The notes beneath the pieces were generated by a model. The model saw only the letters and a list, made by a program, of their open reading frames with translations. It was not told the origin of the DNA and made no database searches. 64,000 bases of DNA from Trypanosoma brucei. Lineage: Eukaryota. The stretch is taken from the NCBI GenBank assembly GCA_000002445.1, contig CM000208.1, positions 3,360,001 to 3,424,000 on the forward strand. Direction: 5' to 3'. Below are positions 5,911 through 14,473 of this stretch, one piece after another. The position numbers and the translations under genes were made by a program. Every line of letters begins with the position of its first letter. Within the stretch, counting starts at the first letter, position 1.

Positions 5911-7350
5911 TTACGCAAAATCCTCCCCCTCTCCCTCATTGGTTTCATCTTCTTTAGCGACTGCCTCTTCCTCACCTTCTTGCTCTTTCTTCTCCTCATC
6001 CTCCTCGTCATCGCTGGAGAGTTCTGGTTCGCCTGTTTTGATGTGACTGGAGTACTCCTTCAGTTTGGCACGGATATTTTCCATGATTCCACCAATGTCT
6101 TCCAGGAACCTCGGTGGCTGCTCGTCAACAAGCTTGAACAATTCCAACTTCTCTTCACTATGCTTGATGACTCGCGGTTTCGGCGCCGAATCCCTCTTTG
6201 CTTTATTGGCTTGTTGCTTCTGCTTCTTGCTGTCGCCTCCGTTCTGATGACTCATGCCATCGTTCAAGACCACGGCACCTTCTGGGGCAAACTCCGCTGG
6301 GTCAAAGTTTGCCGCTGCCTCCCTCCTGGCCCGCTCCTCATTCTCGCGTTGAACCATAATCTTTTGGTCCCTCAAATACTGTAGAAGGGTGTCGCATGCC
6401 GCGATTTCCACCTCGTATGGGTTCATGCGACGCAGCGCACGCTCACGCTTCTCCGCCAACTTGGGGGCATTCTTTCGTTCCAGGAACCTGCGGTGGCGTT
6501 CCTTGCGCACTTCCTCCATTTTGGCCATGTGCTTAGCGCGGGCTTCATCACACCACGACTTCCACACCTCCATTGCCTTCTGGAAGTCCTCAGAAAGTGC
6601 GTTCATTTCCTTGGTAATACTGGTGATCTTTGCGCTGATCTCATCACACTTTTTGAATACTTCCTGCCGATTCGCCCCAGTGCTCCTCATTTTGTCATCT
6701 TTCTCCATTTTGGTTGATCGTTGTCCCTTGTATTCTTCATTGAGACCCCGAATGCGCTCGTTAATTTCTTGGATCTCACGTTGCAACGTCGCCTCGCAGT
6801 GCTTTGCCTCCGCGATGGCCTCGGAAACAGGCTGCAGCTCCTGCAAGTACCGTTTAGCATCCTCAAGTTGGCCTATTTGTCGCATGATGCGCTTCTCGGC
6901 GGCGAGTCCACCGCCACTTGTCTCCATTTTTTTCGTCATGTACTCGATGGCCTCGTCGAACTCCTCCACGCTTTTAAAGCCGCCCAGGTCATCTGTCAGA
7001 GAGCGGAGTTTCTTCACGTACTCGTCGTGTTTCTTCCTTACTTCAATAATCTCCTCTGACTTTTTGGAGCGCATTTCTTGTTCAGCCTTCCGTTTGTCAT
7101 CAAGCTCCTTGAGCCTCTGTCGGATCTCGTCGCGCTCCTTGTCAGGCTCACTTTTTGGTCCCAACGAAGCACGTAGCTCCTTGATTTGGGCGATAAGAGC
7201 CCCTTTCTCCTGCGAAAGTGCTTTCATCTTGGTTCGGTGCTCCATTACATCTGGTCTCGGAGGCGCCCCCGGAGCTGTCATCCACCGCGGTTGAGGACGC
7301 CTTTCCGTCGGCGCGGGCGCAGCTTCAGGTGCCGTCTCTGTCTTGCTCAT
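5911..7350 (-). CDS. Conserved coiled-coil protein (479 aa), hypothetical
   Basis: Long minus-strand ORF rich in E/K/R/L heptads with an acidic C-terminal tail (DDEEDEEKKEQEGEEE). No catalytic motifs recognised. Confidence 0.6.
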   Translation of the reverse strand: MSKTETAPEAAPAPTERRPQPRWMTAPGAPPRPDVMEHRTKMKALSQEKGALIAQIKELRASLGPKSEPDKERDEIRQRLKELDDKRKAEQEMRSKKSEEIIEVRKKHDEYVKKLRSLTDDLGGFKSVEEFDEAIEYMTKKMETSGGGLAAEKRIMRQIGQLEDAKRYLQELQPVSEAIAEAKHCEATLQREIQEINERIRGLNEEYKGQRSTKMEKDDKMRSTGANRQEVFKKCDEISAKITSITKEMNALSEDFQKAMEVWKSWCDEARAKHMAKMEEVRKERHRRFLERKNAPKLAEKRERALRRMNPYEVEIAACDTLLQYLRDQKIMVQRENEERARREAAANFDPAEFAPEGAVVLNDGMSHQNGGDSKKQKQQANKAKRDSAPKPRVIKHSEEKLELFKLVDEQPPRFLEDIGGIMENIRAKLKEYSSHIKTGEPELSSDDEEDEEKKEQEGEEEAVAKEDETNEGEGEDFA

Positions 7351-8210
7351 TGCTGCTGATGCTTTTTGGCAGAACCTTTCCCCCTTGGTACACTAATCGT
7401 GCAAATTAATGAGGCAACTTCCTCAATCTAATTATATTATTCTTATTTTGTTCCTTTTTCCACTCTTACAACGTATTCCCTTATTGTTGTCAATTAATCG
7501 CCTCTCCAATGCAACTTTAGCCAACTCTCTGCCCCCTTTGAAATTCCTTGCTATTGTTGTCTAAACAGAGTTATTAGTTGACCAAGAGAAGAGGCACTCT
7601 GATTCGTGGGAGGTGAGCAAAAGCGCATACAGAGCAGAAAAAAAAAGGGAGACAATACCCCTAGAGGATGCCAAACACATGGCGCTATCGTCGGCGAGCT
7701 TTTGCGTTGCTGCGCCACGTATTGGCCCGCATAAATTCAAATGGTGGCAATAGGAGTTGTGCGAGTACACATGCGACTACCATAAACTTGATGACGCAGC
7801 CGGTGGAGTTTTCCTGCTTCCCCCTCTCCTCTTCCTTTGAGAATTCCCCTGAGTTGCCAAACCGATCCACTGGTGTGCACCTCCGGATGCGGAGCGGTGC
7901 AAAGCAGCCCAAACAAAAGACATGTGTACAGAAATAAAAGGGTAATGCCCACCCCCGCCTCGCCCCCACATTACATAAATCGGGAACATATTCTTTTCCT
8001 TCTTCTTCATGTACTCCAGCATGTAAATAAATGGATGTGCTTACGTATTCTTTCGCTGAGAGTGTGCTGCAAAGGGCATCTAAAGGGGCAGATGTGATTA
8101 TATCCGCTTCCTCAAACAAATTTTAGTGGAGGTGGCGGAAACATAACGAACATGTTCCGTCCCCTTCCACACCCCAGGAACAGCGTTCCCATCAAGTTCA
8201 CAATTCATAA

Positions 8211-8430
8211 GGTGAAAAATATTCCCCTTGCATTTTACCTTTGCTTTTAATCAGGCACCATAAATGTTATTTGGAACTCCATTTAGTATTATAATTCTTC
8301 CCTTTTCCTTCATGCAGATTAGTGTGGCACAAAATATTTGTACAGAAAAAGTCCAAAGATACCTCCAAACAATGGAATAACTAGTGGAACCCAGAAATAA
8401 TAATTTGCATGTGAAAACACCTTCCCACCA
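8211..8430 (-). pseudogene. Relic of an aquaglyceroporin 3' end (last 36 codons, stop and about 108 nt of 3'UTR)
   Basis: The 220 bp is about 97% identical to 9351..9570 (AQP3 3'UTR plus C-terminal coding). The reverse-complement of 8319..8428 reads [36 protein letters not shown]. Homology stops abruptly at 8430 and there is no upstream ORF. Confidence 0.8.
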
Positions 8431-9050
8431 AAGTGAATGGTCTCCGTGAGTGGGTAAGAAACTTCCTCTCAGGGTCCCTATCCATCGTGCTGACGAAAAT
8501 TACGAAAATAAACGAAACCTTCAATGTAATATTTACTGGTTAAACTGGCTGCCGTTTTCTCTTTTCCCACGCGAATTCGGAAGTCGCTCTCCACCTCCCT
8601 TTGTTTGTGTGGAGGAGCTCCAGGTATCAAACAAAGTAAAAATAAAGAAAGCTCATTAAAATCTATAATAACAATCAAATATTCCCCAATAGAATGCACC
8701 ACCACCTCATTTGTAAAACAGAAGTGAATCATCAAGTGCGAATTTGCCCCGGCATACTATCCCTCACCTCCCAACACAACAAAATCAGCGGTTAAAACAC
8801 ACATGCAAACAGCTGTGGGATGAAGAGAAGTAAAGTGCAACAACAAAGAGATGTACGACATGAGTGAAGTAAACCGAGATTCACCTTAACGTCTTCCCAA
8901 AATATGTATTTAAATGACGTTAGGGGTGCAACGAGGGATTATCCAAGTGGTTCAGCGCTATTCAGTGACAAATTTTATGTGTGTATTCTTCCATTGGTGC
9001 CCTGAGCGAACATAATCGGGGTGGCTCGAAAAAAAAAAACACATGAACAA

Positions 9051-9057
9051 GCGCGCG

Positions 9058-9094
<37 letters not shown>
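9051..9094. repeat. Compound microsatellite (GC)4(AC)8(AT)9
   Basis: Read directly: gcgcgcgc acacacacacacacac atatatatatatatatat. Confidence 0.9.
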
Positions 9095-9095
<1 letters not shown>

Positions 9096-9350
9096 AGAAA
9101 AAAGTAAACATGAGATTAGTGATGGGGAAAGACTTTCTTACGCTGCTGAAGGGAGCAACAGCACCTATGGATTGCGCCATCTGTTCACCTTATTTATCTC
9201 TAAAAATTAGTGTCCCCTTCGATCATTGTACTTAATACAATGAAACAAAACGGCAACCAGAAAGGCAGCTCATGCACTCAAAAACAGGAAAAGAATCGTT
9301 TTTTTTTAAACACGAATTAAAATAACGCTTTTTATATACTTAGTACATAC

Positions 9351-10650
9351 GGTGAAAAATATTCCCCTTGCGTTTTACCTTTGCTTTTAACCAGGCACCA
9401 TAAATGTTATTTGGAATTCCATTTAGTATTATAATTCTTCCTTTTTCCTTCATGCAGATTAGTGTGGCACAAAATATTTGTACAGAAAAAGTCCAAAGAT
9501 ACCTCCAAACAATGGAATAACTAGTGGAACCCAGAAATAATAATTTGCATGTGAAAACACCTTCCCACCATAAAGAAAAGAAGAGAAGACCCTGGGACCG
9601 AAGTCACGAGCCGGATTTATTGCGTAACCCGTTGAGTAACCGATGTTATTGCCAATGGCGAAGACAAGAGCACCAACTGCCAACGGCTCGTGTCCCTTGG
9701 CAGGAGAGTTATTGGGGTCGAAGATACCGCAGACACAGAACAATAGCATCGCCGTACATATAAACTCACCAAAGATACAAGAAAATAGACCATTTGAATC
9801 CCTTGGGTAGGTGCTGAACACACCTGCGGTCCCCTTTTCACCGAAGGCAATCAACTCACCACCACCATGCGCCTTCAGGAGATCAGCAAACACTCCGTAA
9901 GCGCAGGCAGCACCAAGAAAGGCACCGAGCATCTGCGCCGCGATGTAGCCGGGGACTTTTCTCCAAGGGAAATCACCGAAAACCGCATTGCCAACGGTGA
10001 CGGCGGGATTAAGGTGGCCGCTCGAGATACCCAATGAAACATACAGAGCCATCGTGACGGCAATGCCCCAACCAAGCGTAATGCTGAGGAACCCCAGTTT
10101 CCCATCAATGATAACCGTGGCGACCACACCATTACCCATAAAGAGCAGGACGAAGGTTCCCAGCAGCTCCCCCATGTAGTCGCGGTAATTTAGCCGCAGT
10201 TCCCGTGGTGCCCAAAAGTTGATGCCTCCCGGTACTTCCTCTTGAGCCTCCGCCACCTCATGTTTCCGGTTGCTACTGTCGTCGTTTCCCTGAACACGGA
10301 CCTCCACTGTTCCATCCTTATTAACCGCTTGTAGCTCCATGGGATACGCCACATTGTCTGGTTGGCTCTGCATTCTGATTTTCTGGAGCTTTTTTTTCTT
10401 GTTGCTCGAATTCAATTTTTAAATAATGTCTGATGTGCTGAAGGCGCTACCTAACAATTGTTTTTGTTTCCTCCTACACTGTTACACAAATAGTCAGCAG
10501 CGGGCGATAGAATAGGGGGAACGGGGTTTATAAGGTAGCAAAGCACCTTGCGTGACGCAAGAATGAATGTTCGGAAGTGAGGAAAGTAATATCGACAGCA
10601 TTAACAAGGAATTCCCACATGCGCATGCGTGTGCGTAGAGGAGTGAAACG
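9351..10650. repeat. Tandem duplication unit 1 (AQP3 gene with 3'UTR and 235-bp 5' flank)
   Basis: Paralogous to 11120..12446. The 5' flank 10416..10650 is identical to 12212..12446, and the first about 130 nt of CDS are identical. The 3'UTRs are about 80% identical. Confidence 0.85.
9459..10415 (-). CDS. AQP3: Aquaglyceroporin 3 (canonical NPA/NPA plus Arg filter)
   Basis: 318 aa MIP-family protein. First motif [11 protein letters not shown], second motif [11 protein letters not shown] (NPA followed by the conserved Arg). Six predicted TM segments. The N-terminal 44 aa are identical to the paralogue downstream. Confidence 0.9.
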
Positions 10651-11119
10651 AAGAGCAATATCGCTAATCGTAATTTGAATGCCTCTCCGAGGCACATCGT
10701 TGCGTGGTAACGTAAACAAATGGGATGGGGAGAGGAAAGTGAAAGAGGGTGGAAGATGTGGCAACCTACTAAGGTTCCGTCATGTATTCCCTTCCTCCAC
10801 ATTATTATTGTTATATATTTCTACCCGCTGAATAAAAATAGACAAGTGATAAAAATAAGGGATGATGAAAAGACAAACACAGCATTTACCTCTACAGGGG
10901 CACCGCACCCTCTCGGTTAAACCGCTATAAACTCCTTACAACACATCCTTATTGTTTGATCCCATTCTCTTTCTTTTATGCCCCTTAGGTTAAATTATAA
11001 TGTGACATAACAGAGCAGTTTGCCTTCGCCTTTGGAGAAGGCAAAAACTTCAACGCTCACCGTTTCACCCGCATTCTTCGGGAGAAACAAAACCTCTCTG
11101 TTATATTCTTAACTCATAT

Positions 11120-12446
11120 GGTGAAAAATGATCCCTTCGTTTTATTTTTCATCTTTCCTTTTAGCTAGGCACCATCAATGTTATTTGGAATTCCACTAAC
11201 CGTCAATACCCTTCGCCCTACCCTGGCCGATTAGTGTGGAAGAAAATATTTGTACAGAAAAAGTCCAAGGATAGCTCCAAAGAATGGAACAACTAGTGGA
11301 ACCCAGAAATAATAATTTGCATGTGAAAAAACTTCCCCCCCGAGAAGGATCGCACCGAAGACCCTGGGACCGAAATCAAGTGAGGGATTCATCGCAAGGG
11401 GAGACGCTAAGCCGAAGTTGTTGACCATGACGAAGACAAGAGCACCAATAGCTACCGTTTCGTACCCCTTGGCAGGAGAGTTATTGGGGTCAAAGATACC
11501 GCAGACACAGAGCAGTAGCACTGCGGTGGAAATGAGTTCAGCAAAAATTGGATAAAATATACCATTTCCTTCCGCGGGGTACATGGCAAACACCCACGCA
11601 ATCCCCTTTTCACCGAAGGCAATCAACTCACCACCACCATGCGCCTTCAGGAGATCAGCAAACACTCCGTAAGCGCAGGCAGCACCAAGGAAAGTGCCGA
11701 GCATCTGCGCCGCGATGTAGCCGGGGACTTTTCTCCAAGGGAAATCACCGAAAACCGCATTGCCAACGGTGACGGCAGAGTTGAGATGGCCACCGGAGAT
11801 GCCCAGTGAAACATACAGAGCCATCGTGACAGCCACACCAATACCAATCGTAAGACCGAGAAGCCCAAAATCTGGAACAAGTAGTGAGGTGATAACCGCG
11901 CCCTTAGCGATATATATGAGGACGAAGTTTCCCAGAAATTCAGCCACGTAGTCGCGGTAATTTAGCCGCAGTTCCCGTGGTGCCCAAAAGTTGATGCCTC
12001 CCACGGGTTTCTCTTGAGCCTCCGCCACCTCATGTTTTTGTACATCTGCATCCCACCGCTCATTGCTACTGTTGTCAACGTTTCCCTGAACACGGACCTC
12101 CACTGTTCCATCCTTATTAACCGCTTGTAGCTCCATGGGATACGCCACATTGTCTGGTTGGCTCTGCATTCTGATTTTCTGGAGCTTTTTTTTCTTGTTG
12201 CTCGAATTCAATTTTTAAATAATGTCTGATGTGCTGAAGGCGCTACCTAACAATTGTTTTTGTTTCCTCCTACACTGTTACACAAATAGTCAGCAGCGGG
12301 CGATAGAATAGGGGGAACGGGGTTTATAAGGTAGCAAAGCACCTTGCGTGACGCAAGAATGAATGTTCGGAAGTGAGGAAAGTAATATCGACAGCATTAA
12401 CAAGGAATTCCCACATGCGCATGCGTGTGCGTAGAGGAGTGAAACG
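11120..12446. repeat. Tandem duplication unit 2 (AQP2 gene with flanks)
   Basis: See unit 1. The offset is 1769-1796 bp; the 27-bp difference comes from 24 extra coding nt in AQP2. Confidence 0.85.
11231..12211 (-). CDS. AQP2: Aquaglyceroporin 2 (atypical NSA/NPS motifs, Arg replaced by Leu)
   Basis: 326 aa MIP-family protein. First motif [11 protein letters not shown] (NSA, at about 11774-11782). Second motif [11 protein letters not shown] (NPS plus Leu, at about 11378-11389). These are the hallmark residues of TbAQP2, the pentamidine/melarsoprol uptake channel. Confidence 0.9.
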
Positions 12447-12799
12447 GAAGGAAGAAAGAAAACAACAAGTGGAGTTTCAGCCTTCTTTTTCTCGATTATT
12501 CTGATCTGATTTCCCCCTTTCCACTATGATGCTTGTATATGATCCCTCCTTGGAGAGCGGTGCAATGCAAAAGGTTATACTGACAGGGTCAAGATGATGC
12601 CGACAAAAAAACTAGGAGGGTGAACTGTGCTCAGGAGGACCATCAAAACCCTCTACCAGCTGTTGCCATGCACCACGCGGTAACCGCCTTACCTCCGCAC
12701 TTCTTCCCATAGTCCTCATTTCCCCTTCTCCTCCCACCCATCCAACCGACCTCCCGTTGTAAATATCTCTCCACCATATCTTGTTCAAACAAGTTGTCG

Positions 12800-13936
12800 T
12801 CAGTGAACCCGCTGATTTTGGTTTTCGTATTCGCTGAGAGGTGTTTTAAACCATGGTTGGCAAAACTCATTGCCTTCACGGAGGATAAACACTTCCGAAT
12901 TGCCAGTTGTAACCACCAGCATGCCTCCAGTGGGCGACCACGAGAGACGCCATACCGGCTCATCGAAGAGGACGCAACTGCGCTCCCAACCACCGCTCAC
13001 CTCTCCCATGGCATCCCTTCCCCCTTCGCCGCTCCGCAACCCCCGGTCATCAATACAAGTCGTGAGGTGACTCCACTGTTTGCGGTGAATGATGACACTC
13101 CTGTCCTGTCCGCAACTAGCAATAACTGCGTATCGCGTCGCAGCGGAAAGAGGTTCGAAAGCAACGTCTCGCACCCAGTCTGTGTGACCTTCGAGCAACT
13201 CCAGGAAGTGATAGGGATGGGCCCCAGCAGCGCCGCCTTCGGGTAAGTACCACAAACGAACTCGTGAGTCACATCCACCAGAGACCAAAAGCCTCCCGTT
13301 ACCCAACTGTGGACAAGTGGGCGCAAATGATACGCATGTGGCTCCCATGGCATGTGCGATGTTGTTGCTGTTGTTACTCAGTTTAACGCTCTCACGCCAG
13401 GCACCCTCTTCATATGTTGTTACTGCCACGGTGCCATCACTACTCGCCGTCGCAAGCATGGGAGATTCGGGTGCCCACTGTACGGCATTGACGCTACCCT
13501 GGTGAATGTCAATCACATGCACTGGTCGCCATTGGCGTGTGGGTTGCGACACTTCTTTCCATACAATTGCCTTGTGATCGTAGCCAGCCGATGCCAAGAC
13601 AGTGCCAAAGCGCGGGTGTGCCCAACTCACCATCCACACGGGACCCTCATGACCTATGAGGGTCGCAACTCGCTGCATCTGACCGTCTCGGACCGTGTGA
13701 ATGCCTATAGTGCGGTCGGAGCTTGCGGTCGCGAGTTGCTGTCCGTAGTAGTCGAATTGCGTGTCGTGGATTATGTCCTGATGTTCCTGAGGTTGCTGCT
13801 GCTGGAATTGTTGGGGCTGCTGTGGTTGTCTCTGTTGATGCATATCATGGGGTGCCACTGGTGCTGCCTGGCCGTAGCCACCAATAGTGCGGTTTTGCGA
13901 CGGGTATCTAGTTGAATGAAGCATTATTGGTATCAA
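12800..13936 (-). CDS. SEC13: Sec13-like WD40 protein (COPII / nuclear pore)
   Basis: HDTQFDYYGQQLATASSDRTIGIH...GHEGPVWMVSWAHPRFGTVLASAGYDHKAIVWKE...VNAVQWAP aligns closely with Sec13 ([24 protein letters not shown]...[32 protein letters not shown]). It carries an additional Q-rich N-terminal extension. Confidence 0.75.
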   Translation of the reverse strand: MIPIMLHSTRYPSQNRTIGGYGQAAPVAPHDMHQQRQPQQPQQFQQQQPQEHQDIIHDTQFDYYGQQLATASSDRTIGIHTVRDGQMQRVATLIGHEGPVWMVSWAHPRFGTVLASAGYDHKAIVWKEVSQPTRQWRPVHVIDIHQGSVNAVQWAPESPMLATASSDGTVAVTTYEEGAWRESVKLSNNSNNIAHAMGATCVSFAPTCPQLGNGRLLVSGGCDSRVRLWYLPEGGAAGAHPYHFLELLEGHTDWVRDVAFEPLSAATRYAVIASCGQDRSVIIHRKQWSHLTTCIDDRGLRSGEGGRDAMGEVSGGWERSCVLFDEPVWRLSWSPTGGMLVVTTGNSEVFILREGNEFCQPWFKTPLSEYENQNQRVH

Positions 13937-14473
13937 TATTCAATTTCTTCTCCTTTCCTCAGTTCCTGGTATTAGTTTTTTTTTTTTTCGCCCTTATCAC
14001 ACCTTATCAACTCCTGCCTTTTCTTATCCACCTAATGGAAGCAAATGGTAGTCCGCGGCGCCGCAGCGTAAAGGTCAAAAGGGGAAAATAACAACACGTC
14101 ATAAAAGATAGATAGCGATTGTTTCAAGTGACAATTTGGCACAGCAACGAATCGCACGAAACACGCACGATGATGGGCAACCCGCTCAGCGACAAAGGGC
14201 TCACTTGTGAGCCAAATCGCATAGCCAGCTTCCGCAACAACTGGTGGTACCCATTGAAATGGCTGTCGTAGCCTGCAAGCATATTCTCTCTGTTGTAAAA
14301 GCAACTATAGCGACATAGTTTCCCTTCACAACTTCTTCCACCGTTATCATCATAGACAGGGGGAGGGGTGTTGATAAAAAAAAACTACCCACTCTTTCCG
14401 AACACAACCATCGCATAAAATTAAGAAAATGATACTAATGAGATTGTATAGGATGGCTGACCCCAGAGCTCAC

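Follow-up and report, generated by a model that had tools for sequence, protein, structure and literature searches.

The question raised by this locus is whether the gene at positions 11231-12211 of the window (the whole 64-kb stretch of DNA that was analysed), in which the NPA boxes and the ar/R arginine of an aquaglyceroporin are altered, encodes aquaglyceroporin 2 of Trypanosoma brucei (TbAQP2) in intact, wild-type form, and whether the altered filter makes a pore through which drugs pass. In sleeping sickness, cross-resistance to melarsoprol and pentamidine is determined genetically mainly by TbAQP2, which is also the first aquaporin for which transport of drug-sized molecules was shown. 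As the earlier note had recognised, the system is already described: the gene, its motifs, its structures with both drugs, its mutational landscape and the resistance chimeras are all published. The additions made here are marginal, and consist of a quantified rarity of the filter, a map of the tracts of perfect identity between AQP2 and AQP3, and a conserved AQP3-type 3' relic. The identity of the gene, its motif positions, intactness, tandem context and filter rarity are determined in the present analysis, and the pore geometry, drug binding, drug transport and resistance rest on published work with the identical sequence.

Coding sequence and identity of the protein

The ORF listing and the translation place the open reading frame at 11231-12211 on the minus strand. 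The plus-strand reading of this region contains many stops and no open reading frame, indicating that the gene is located on the minus strand. The earlier note had assigned 326 residues to the product, but this length has to be corrected. The listing gives 326 codons because bacterial start rules begin the open reading frame at a TTG. The sequence MQSQPDN, with which the reference protein and the PDB chains start, begins at residue 15 of the 326-aa frame. The TTG start was rejected and the ATG start, which gives a 312-aa protein, was preferred, because the reference protein and the PDB chains match the latter end to end. The coding sequences of TbAQP2 and its neighbour TbAQP3 are located as follows.

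11231-12169, minus strand: coding sequence of TbAQP2, 312 aa, with the ATG at 12169 and the stop codon at 11231-11233.
12170-12211, minus strand: 14 in-frame codons from the TTG, non-coding and within the 5' UTR, a product of the bacterial ORF rule.
9459-10373 (ORF 9459-10415), minus strand: TbAQP3, the canonical tandem paralogue, 304 aa, with NPA/NPA boxes and W102, G241, Y250 and R256.

TbAQP2 matches the Pfam MIP profile PF00230 with 133.7 bits (cutoff 25) over profile positions 7-222 of 222, and its ORF is not a chance one because the E-value of this match is 1.1e-38. TbAQP3 matches the same profile with 164.8 bits (cutoff 25). Judged by these scores, the AQP2 and AQP3 ORFs are real genes rather than chance ORFs.

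The 312-aa product is 100% identical (312/312) to the chains named "Aquaglyceroporin 2" in six cryo-EM entries (PDB 8JY6, 8JY7, 8JY8, 8OFX, 8OFY and 8OFZ), with an E-value of about 1e-210 and with residues 15-326 of the query aligned with residues 1-312 of the chain. An exact-sequence look-up of this product retrieves UniProt AQP2_TRYBB, EAN78785.1 (TREU927), CBH16553.1 (T. b. gambiense DAL972) and RHW69761.1, and the identical protein is encoded in the assemblies of TREU927, DAL972 and equiperdum as well as in numerous deposited isolates. The full-length comparison of the 312 residues reveals neither a residue difference from the reference AQP2 nor a frameshift. Residue 159 is threonine, as in the TREU927-type allele, and the window gene does not differ from the reference TbAQP2 in anything tested (residues, boxes, filter, Thr159 and tandem position). 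These matches to AQP2_TRYBB/EAN78785.1 and to the chains of the six PDB entries bear out the identification as TbAQP2 made in the earlier note. The feature is very probably the intact wild-type TbAQP2 gene (Tb927.10.14170), whose product carries drugs by permeation through a wide pore; this high confidence applies jointly to the gene and to the mechanism.

The nearest solved relatives of TbAQP2 outside trypanosomes are the aquaglyceroporins AQP3/7/10, GlpF and PfAQP. When TbAQP2 is compared with solved structures, these aquaglyceroporins give E-values of 1e-28 to 1e-44, as compared with 1e-5 to 1e-16 for AqpZ, AqpM and AQP1/2/4/5. By these values, TbAQP2 is closer to the aquaglyceroporin (GLP) subfamily, which it shares with PfAQP (PDB 3C02), GlpF and human AQP3/7/10, than to water-selective aquaporins. 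It is an atypical GLP member by descent, without the canonical aromatic/arginine filter.

NPA boxes, selectivity filter and filter rarity

The residues of the altered boxes and of the filter are encoded at the following positions.

11774-11782, minus strand: NSA (Asn130-Ser131-Ala132, codons AAC TCT GCC) at the position of NPA motif 1.
11375-11389, minus strand: NPS-Leu-Asp (Asn261-Pro262-Ser263-Leu264-Asp265), which stands in the alignments in place of NPA-Arg-Asp.
11381-11389, minus strand: NPS, residues 261-263.
11378-11380, minus strand: Leu264 (CTT) at the position of the ar/R arginine, next to Asp265.
11840-11842, minus strand: Ile110, at the ar/R position occupied by Trp102 in TbAQP3.
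11393-11425, minus strand: segment of loop E and its half-helix, with Val249 (11423-11425), Leu258 (11396-11398) and Ala259 (11393-11395).

Both NSA and NPS-Leu are found in the minus-strand translation of the 11231-12211 frame as quoted in the earlier note, which had suggested aligning this translation with the TbAQP2 and TbAQP3 references. This alignment gives an exact match to AQP2, and in the BLASTP alignment with TbAQP3 the NSA lies on NPA and the NPS-L on NPA-R, with no gaps nearby. When TbAQP2 is aligned by HMMER with the solved mammalian AQP3 chains, its NSA region lies opposite "sgahlnpavt" and its NPS-Leu region is likewise aligned. The MAFFT alignment with 150 relatives places NSA, NPS and Leu264 in the same columns as the pairwise alignments. 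Thus, three alignments (with TbAQP3, with mammalian AQP3 and of 152 sequences) concur that the altered residues occupy the true NPA and ar/R positions. Asn130 and Asn261 lie on the asparagines of the two NPA boxes of TbAQP3, mammalian AQP3 and the 150 relatives, and the second or third positions of the boxes deviate. The earlier note had stated that both NPA alanines are lost, but this is not the case: in box 1 proline is replaced by serine and alanine is kept, and in box 2 alanine is replaced by serine and proline is kept. Its claim of an arginine-to-leucine substitution agrees with the alignment of Leu264 with the arginine column (R256 in TbAQP3), and the NPA-Arg that it ascribed to the adjacent paralogue is seen in TbAQP3, which has NPA/NPA and R256 in the alignment and HLNPAVTVG in its translation. 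Ile110, Val249, Leu258 and Leu264 replace the Trp, Gly, Tyr and Arg of the canonical filter; the equivalents of Val249, Leu258 and Ala259 in TbAQP3 are Gly241, Tyr250 and Ala251. Asp265 is kept beside Leu264.

The rarity of this filter was estimated from a HMMER scan of 1.84 billion cluster representatives, which yields 6657 MIP relatives at E <= 0.001. The best 150 of these 6657 relatives (representatives of 50%-identity clusters) and TbAQP3 serve as comparators (n=151), and 152 sequences are aligned when TbAQP2 is included. None of the 151 comparators (the best 150 of the 6657 relatives plus TbAQP3) has leucine in the column of Leu264; this column is occupied by arginine in 145 of them, by cysteine in two, by lysine in two, and by threonine and glycine in one each. 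Likewise, NSA is found in box 1 of none of the 151 comparators, leaving TbAQP2 as the sole sequence with NSA among the 152. Of the 152 aligned sequences, 126 have NPA in box 1, 128 have it in box 2, eight including TbAQP2 have NPS in box 2, and 119 have Trp, Phe or Tyr in the column of Ile110. The column of Asp265 is invariant across all 152. The closest cluster representative, with 59% identity, has the canonical W/G/Y/R filter and NPA/NPA boxes. As far as the aligned sequences tell, the filter combination of TbAQP2 is unique within this sample of its 151 nearest comparators.

The loss of the arginine with retention of the aspartate has been termed unique (PMC4734766). A neutral residue in the arginine column followed by the conserved aspartate is present in four of the 150 representatives, P0027, P0073, P0083 and P0125 (Cys, Cys, Thr and Gly, respectively), of which P0083 also has isoleucine in the column of Ile110. 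Although rare, the loss of arginine with retention of aspartate is thus apparently not confined to TbAQP2, occurring in a weaker form in these four representatives.

Pore geometry and drug transport

Cryo-EM structures of TbAQP2 show the canonical aquaporin fold and a tetramer, with a filter of I110, V249, A259 and L264 that is wider and more hydrophobic than that of BtAQP1 or PfAQP, a cytoplasmic neck that is also wider, pentamidine extended along the pore and melarsoprol located mid-pore (PMC11088622, PMC12803511). The unusually wide pore that the earlier note had predicted is confirmed by these structures of the identical sequence. S131 and S263 are off the drug path, and S263 forms a hydrogen bond with N261 (PMC11088622, PMC7473772, PMC12803511). 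PfAQP, GlpF and human AQP3/7/10 keep the ar/R arginine and the aromatic residues (W50/F190/R196 in PfAQP) and have a constriction of about 3.5 A, whereas TbAQP2 is without these residues, and its filter and neck are wider than those of PfAQP/GlpF-type aquaglyceroporins (PMC11088622). PfAQP also has non-canonical boxes (NLA/NPS), and the backbone geometry is conserved (PMC12803511).

Pentamidine transport is lowered by about 94-95% when NSA/NPS is changed to NPA/NPA, and is essentially abolished by any one of I110W, L258Y and L264R (PMC7473772). TbAQP3 carries neither pentamidine nor melarsoprol (PMC7473772, PMC12803511), and its triple reverse mutant gains weak pentamidine transport (PMC7473772). 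Pentamidine transport by TbAQP2 is independent of endocytosis (PMC7473772). When TbAQP2 is expressed in Leishmania, the uptake is indistinguishable from that of the trypanosome high-affinity pentamidine transporter HAPT1 (PMC3922157), and in molecular dynamics simulations under a physiological field pentamidine moved inward (PMC12803511). Uptake at high affinity of both pentamidine and the melaminophenyl arsenicals (HAPT1 activity) is established experimentally for the identical protein (PMC3922157, PMC7473772), and is assigned to the window gene through this identity.

According to the preferred mechanism, TbAQP2 is a tetramer of MIP fold that conducts water, glycerol and further small neutral solutes, in which the aliphatic Ile110, Val249, Leu258/Ala259 and Leu264 and the NSA/NPS boxes take the place of the Trp/Gly/Tyr/Arg constriction and the NPA boxes. 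The filter and neck are wider and more hydrophobic because of these replacements, and pentamidine and melarsoprol (340-400 Da) enter and traverse the monomer pore because the filter and neck are widened, with the membrane potential driving dicationic pentamidine. Loss of the gene leads to melarsoprol-pentamidine cross-resistance, and so does homologous recombination with AQP3 when it brings back pore residues that are bulky or charged, or makes the protein unstable. Resistance through deletion or AQP2/AQP3 chimerisation is reported for laboratory lines and T. b. gambiense field isolates; the field chimeras correlate with resistance, and isolates from the DRC retain a single gene, with 813 bp at its start that match AQP2 and 126 bp at its end that are from AQP3 (PMC3794916).

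An older model regards TbAQP2 as a high-affinity surface receptor, in which pentamidine plugs the Arg-less filter via Asp265 and both drug and channel are internalised by endocytosis at the flagellar pocket. It builds on assays in which TbAQP2 of yeast protoplasts excluded even small organic cations, formamidine among the impermeant ones, and in which pentamidine behaved as an inhibitor of glycerol flux with an IC50 of 130 nM and not as a detectable permeant; moreover, L264R abolishes pentamidine binding and sensitisation, and TbAQP2 is located in the flagellar pocket (Song et al., PMC4734766). Asp265 is present next to Leu264 in the window gene as well. The exclusion of small cations in these yeast assays is also a caveat to the "weakly selective" pore of the earlier note, of which the width is retained (PMC4734766). 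However, a partial block of endocytosis by CRK12 RNAi decreases the uptake of suramin but not that of pentamidine, the turnover of AQP2 is unchanged by pentamidine, procyclics and Leishmania, both of which have low endocytosis, show a pentamidine uptake raised about 10-fold, and neutral arsenicals require no proton gradient (PMC7473772). In addition, both drugs are found inside the pore by cryo-EM, and molecular dynamics indicates translocation under physiological potential (PMC11088622, PMC12803511). The receptor model is now poorly supported and very unlikely to be correct, and permeation of the drugs through the wide pore of TbAQP2 is preferred.

Mosaic identity with AQP3 and context of the locus

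AQP2 lies directly upstream of AQP3 on the same minus strand. The description of AQP2 as the second MIP gene in the earlier note holds in plus-strand order only; in the direction of transcription AQP2 is the first of the two. A repeat search detects the AQP duplication as long units with a start-to-start spacing of 1772-1796 nt, and Tandem Repeats Finder reports nothing for 7000-14000. TbAQP3 is an exact match only to EAN78784.1/XP_827896.1 of TREU927. It resembles TbAQP2 in its MIP fold, length class, identical 5' UTR and N-terminus and central segment, with 74% amino acid identity, but differs from it in its NPA/NPA boxes, its W102/G241/Y250/R256 filter and the lack of an 8-residue N-terminal insertion. 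The AQP2 tracts that are perfectly identical to AQP3 are as follows.

12079-12446, minus strand: 368-nt tract, identical to the AQP3 copy at 10283-10650, comprising 277 nt of 5' UTR/upstream sequence and the first 91 nt of the coding sequence.
11697-11776, minus strand: first mid-gene block identical to AQP3, 80 nt.
11602-11689, minus strand: second mid-gene block identical to AQP3, 88 nt, with 7 nt between the two blocks.

The 7 nt between the mid-gene blocks are the site of the T159A polymorphism, which is reported as a 4-SNP polymorphism in East African isolates (PMC3794916). The segments that encode pore residues are only 54-62% identical between AQP2 and AQP3 in 50-nt windows (11827-11926 with I110, 11527-11576, and 11377-11426 from V249 to L264), and the adjoining 11327-11376 is 72% identical. 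Positions 11243-11329 also count among the identical tracts. Gene conversion and chimera formation could plausibly act on these tracts, which may be linked in this way to the chimeras of the literature. Because perfectly identical tracts flank divergent pore-lining blocks, this mosaic suggests that gene conversion continues and that selection maintains the differences in the pore segments. When AQP2 and AQP3 are compared pairwise by the Nei-Gojobori method, the overall dN/dS is 0.38, a crude value obtained with no outgroup or branch model. The same comparison, applied to the whole gene and eight segments, reveals no convincing excess of dN over dS in the pore segments; residues 45-70 form the only segment with dN/dS >1, on six substitutions, too few to be informative. 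The published positive selection, which is branch-based, is not reproduced by this pairwise dN/dS and is neither supported nor refuted by it. A natural permeant larger than glycerol may explain why the pore is wide and aliphatic and why AQP2 stays different from AQP3 while gene conversion goes on, but this explanation is tentative and rather doubtful; the natural role of the wide pore has been raised as a question (PMC7473772).

A gene in such a locus might be an AQP2/AQP3 resistance chimera, or a degenerate or misassembled copy. The 368, 80 and 88 nt of perfect identity mark the locus as recombination-prone, and the deposited "chimeric aquaglyceroporin 2/3" alleles fall in the same 90% protein cluster as AQP2, of which they are separate members according to the exact-sequence look-up. 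However, the product is identical at 312 of 312 residues to wild-type AQP2_TRYBB and the cryo-EM protein, every filter residue is of the AQP2 type, a separate intact AQP3 lies downstream, and two further genomes, assembled independently, encode the same AQP2 protein. The probability of a chimera or a damaged copy is thus negligible; the exact wild-type match refutes a chimera, a resistance allele, a pseudogene and an assembly artefact alike. Sequencing errors in a canonical aquaglyceroporin are hardly conceivable as the source of the NSA, NPS and Leu codons, although one base change from AQP3 at the decisive position of the codon suffices for each of P->S, A->S and R->L (CCC/TCT, GCT/TCA and CGT/CTT), since the three changes are independent and stand among 73 substitutions and an 8-residue indel that separate the two proteins, and this reading is refuted by the identical protein in the TREU927, DAL972 and equiperdum assemblies and many deposited isolates and by the structure of the expressed protein solved with these NSA/NPS/Leu residues (PMC11088622). 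The gene is thus retained as wild-type TbAQP2.

A further AQP sequence is present outside AQP2.

8206-8432, minus strand: AQP3-type 3' end relic, 225 nt, consisting of the last 37 codons, the stop codon and about 113 nt of 3' UTR.

The codons of this relic are 97% identical at the amino acid level to residues 268-304 of AQP3, and its DNA is 97.8% identical to AQP3 and about 80% identical to AQP2. It lies 1140 nt downstream of the corresponding part of AQP3 and is 99.4-99.7% conserved in the loci of T. b. equiperdum and T. b. gambiense. Searches with tblastn and sensitive blastn detect no degenerate AQP sequence around it beyond the 225-nt fragment, and a quick literature search gave no relevant match for a described AQP pseudogene or relic. 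The relic may have been left by a third copy or by an old rearrangement, and its conservation as an AQP3-type 3' end would indicate a formerly larger, recombining array.

At the DNA level, the window shares 99.4% identity with the locus of T. b. equiperdum and 98.6% with that of DAL972. These values point to a third, closely related genome, and together with the exact match of AQP3 they make chromosome 10 of T. b. brucei TREU927 the most likely source. The window has the gene order SNARE, a gene without a Pfam match (460 aa in the window), WD40, AQP2, AQP3 and a 479-aa gene in common with equiperdum and DAL972, and the tandem order of AQP2 and AQP3 is the same in both chromosome records. DAL972 and TREU927 are reported to differ at the AQP2/AQP3 locus (PMC3794916). 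The AQP3 region of DAL972 (7521-8842 of its locus, L002) is 91.5% identical to the AQP2 unit of the window, and the AQP3 of the window and that of equiperdum are about 84-85% identical to the same unit. This difference (91.5% vs about 84-85%), as read from aligned DNA, indicates an AQP2-to-AQP3 conversion in the gambiense reference DAL972.

A 102-aa ORF is located at 10494-10802 on the minus strand between AQP2 and AQP3. It is annotated as a gene in DAL972 (L002 7372-7680) and is absent from the equiperdum annotation. This ORF is probably spurious, because the duplicated sequence upstream of the AQP genes overlaps with it and Pfam gives no match. All real-looking long ORFs of the 64-kb window are on the minus strand: 22 ORFs have at least 250 aa, less three on the plus strand that sit inside longer minus-strand ORFs. 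This arrangement fits a single polycistronic transcription unit of the kinetoplastid type that includes AQP2 and AQP3.
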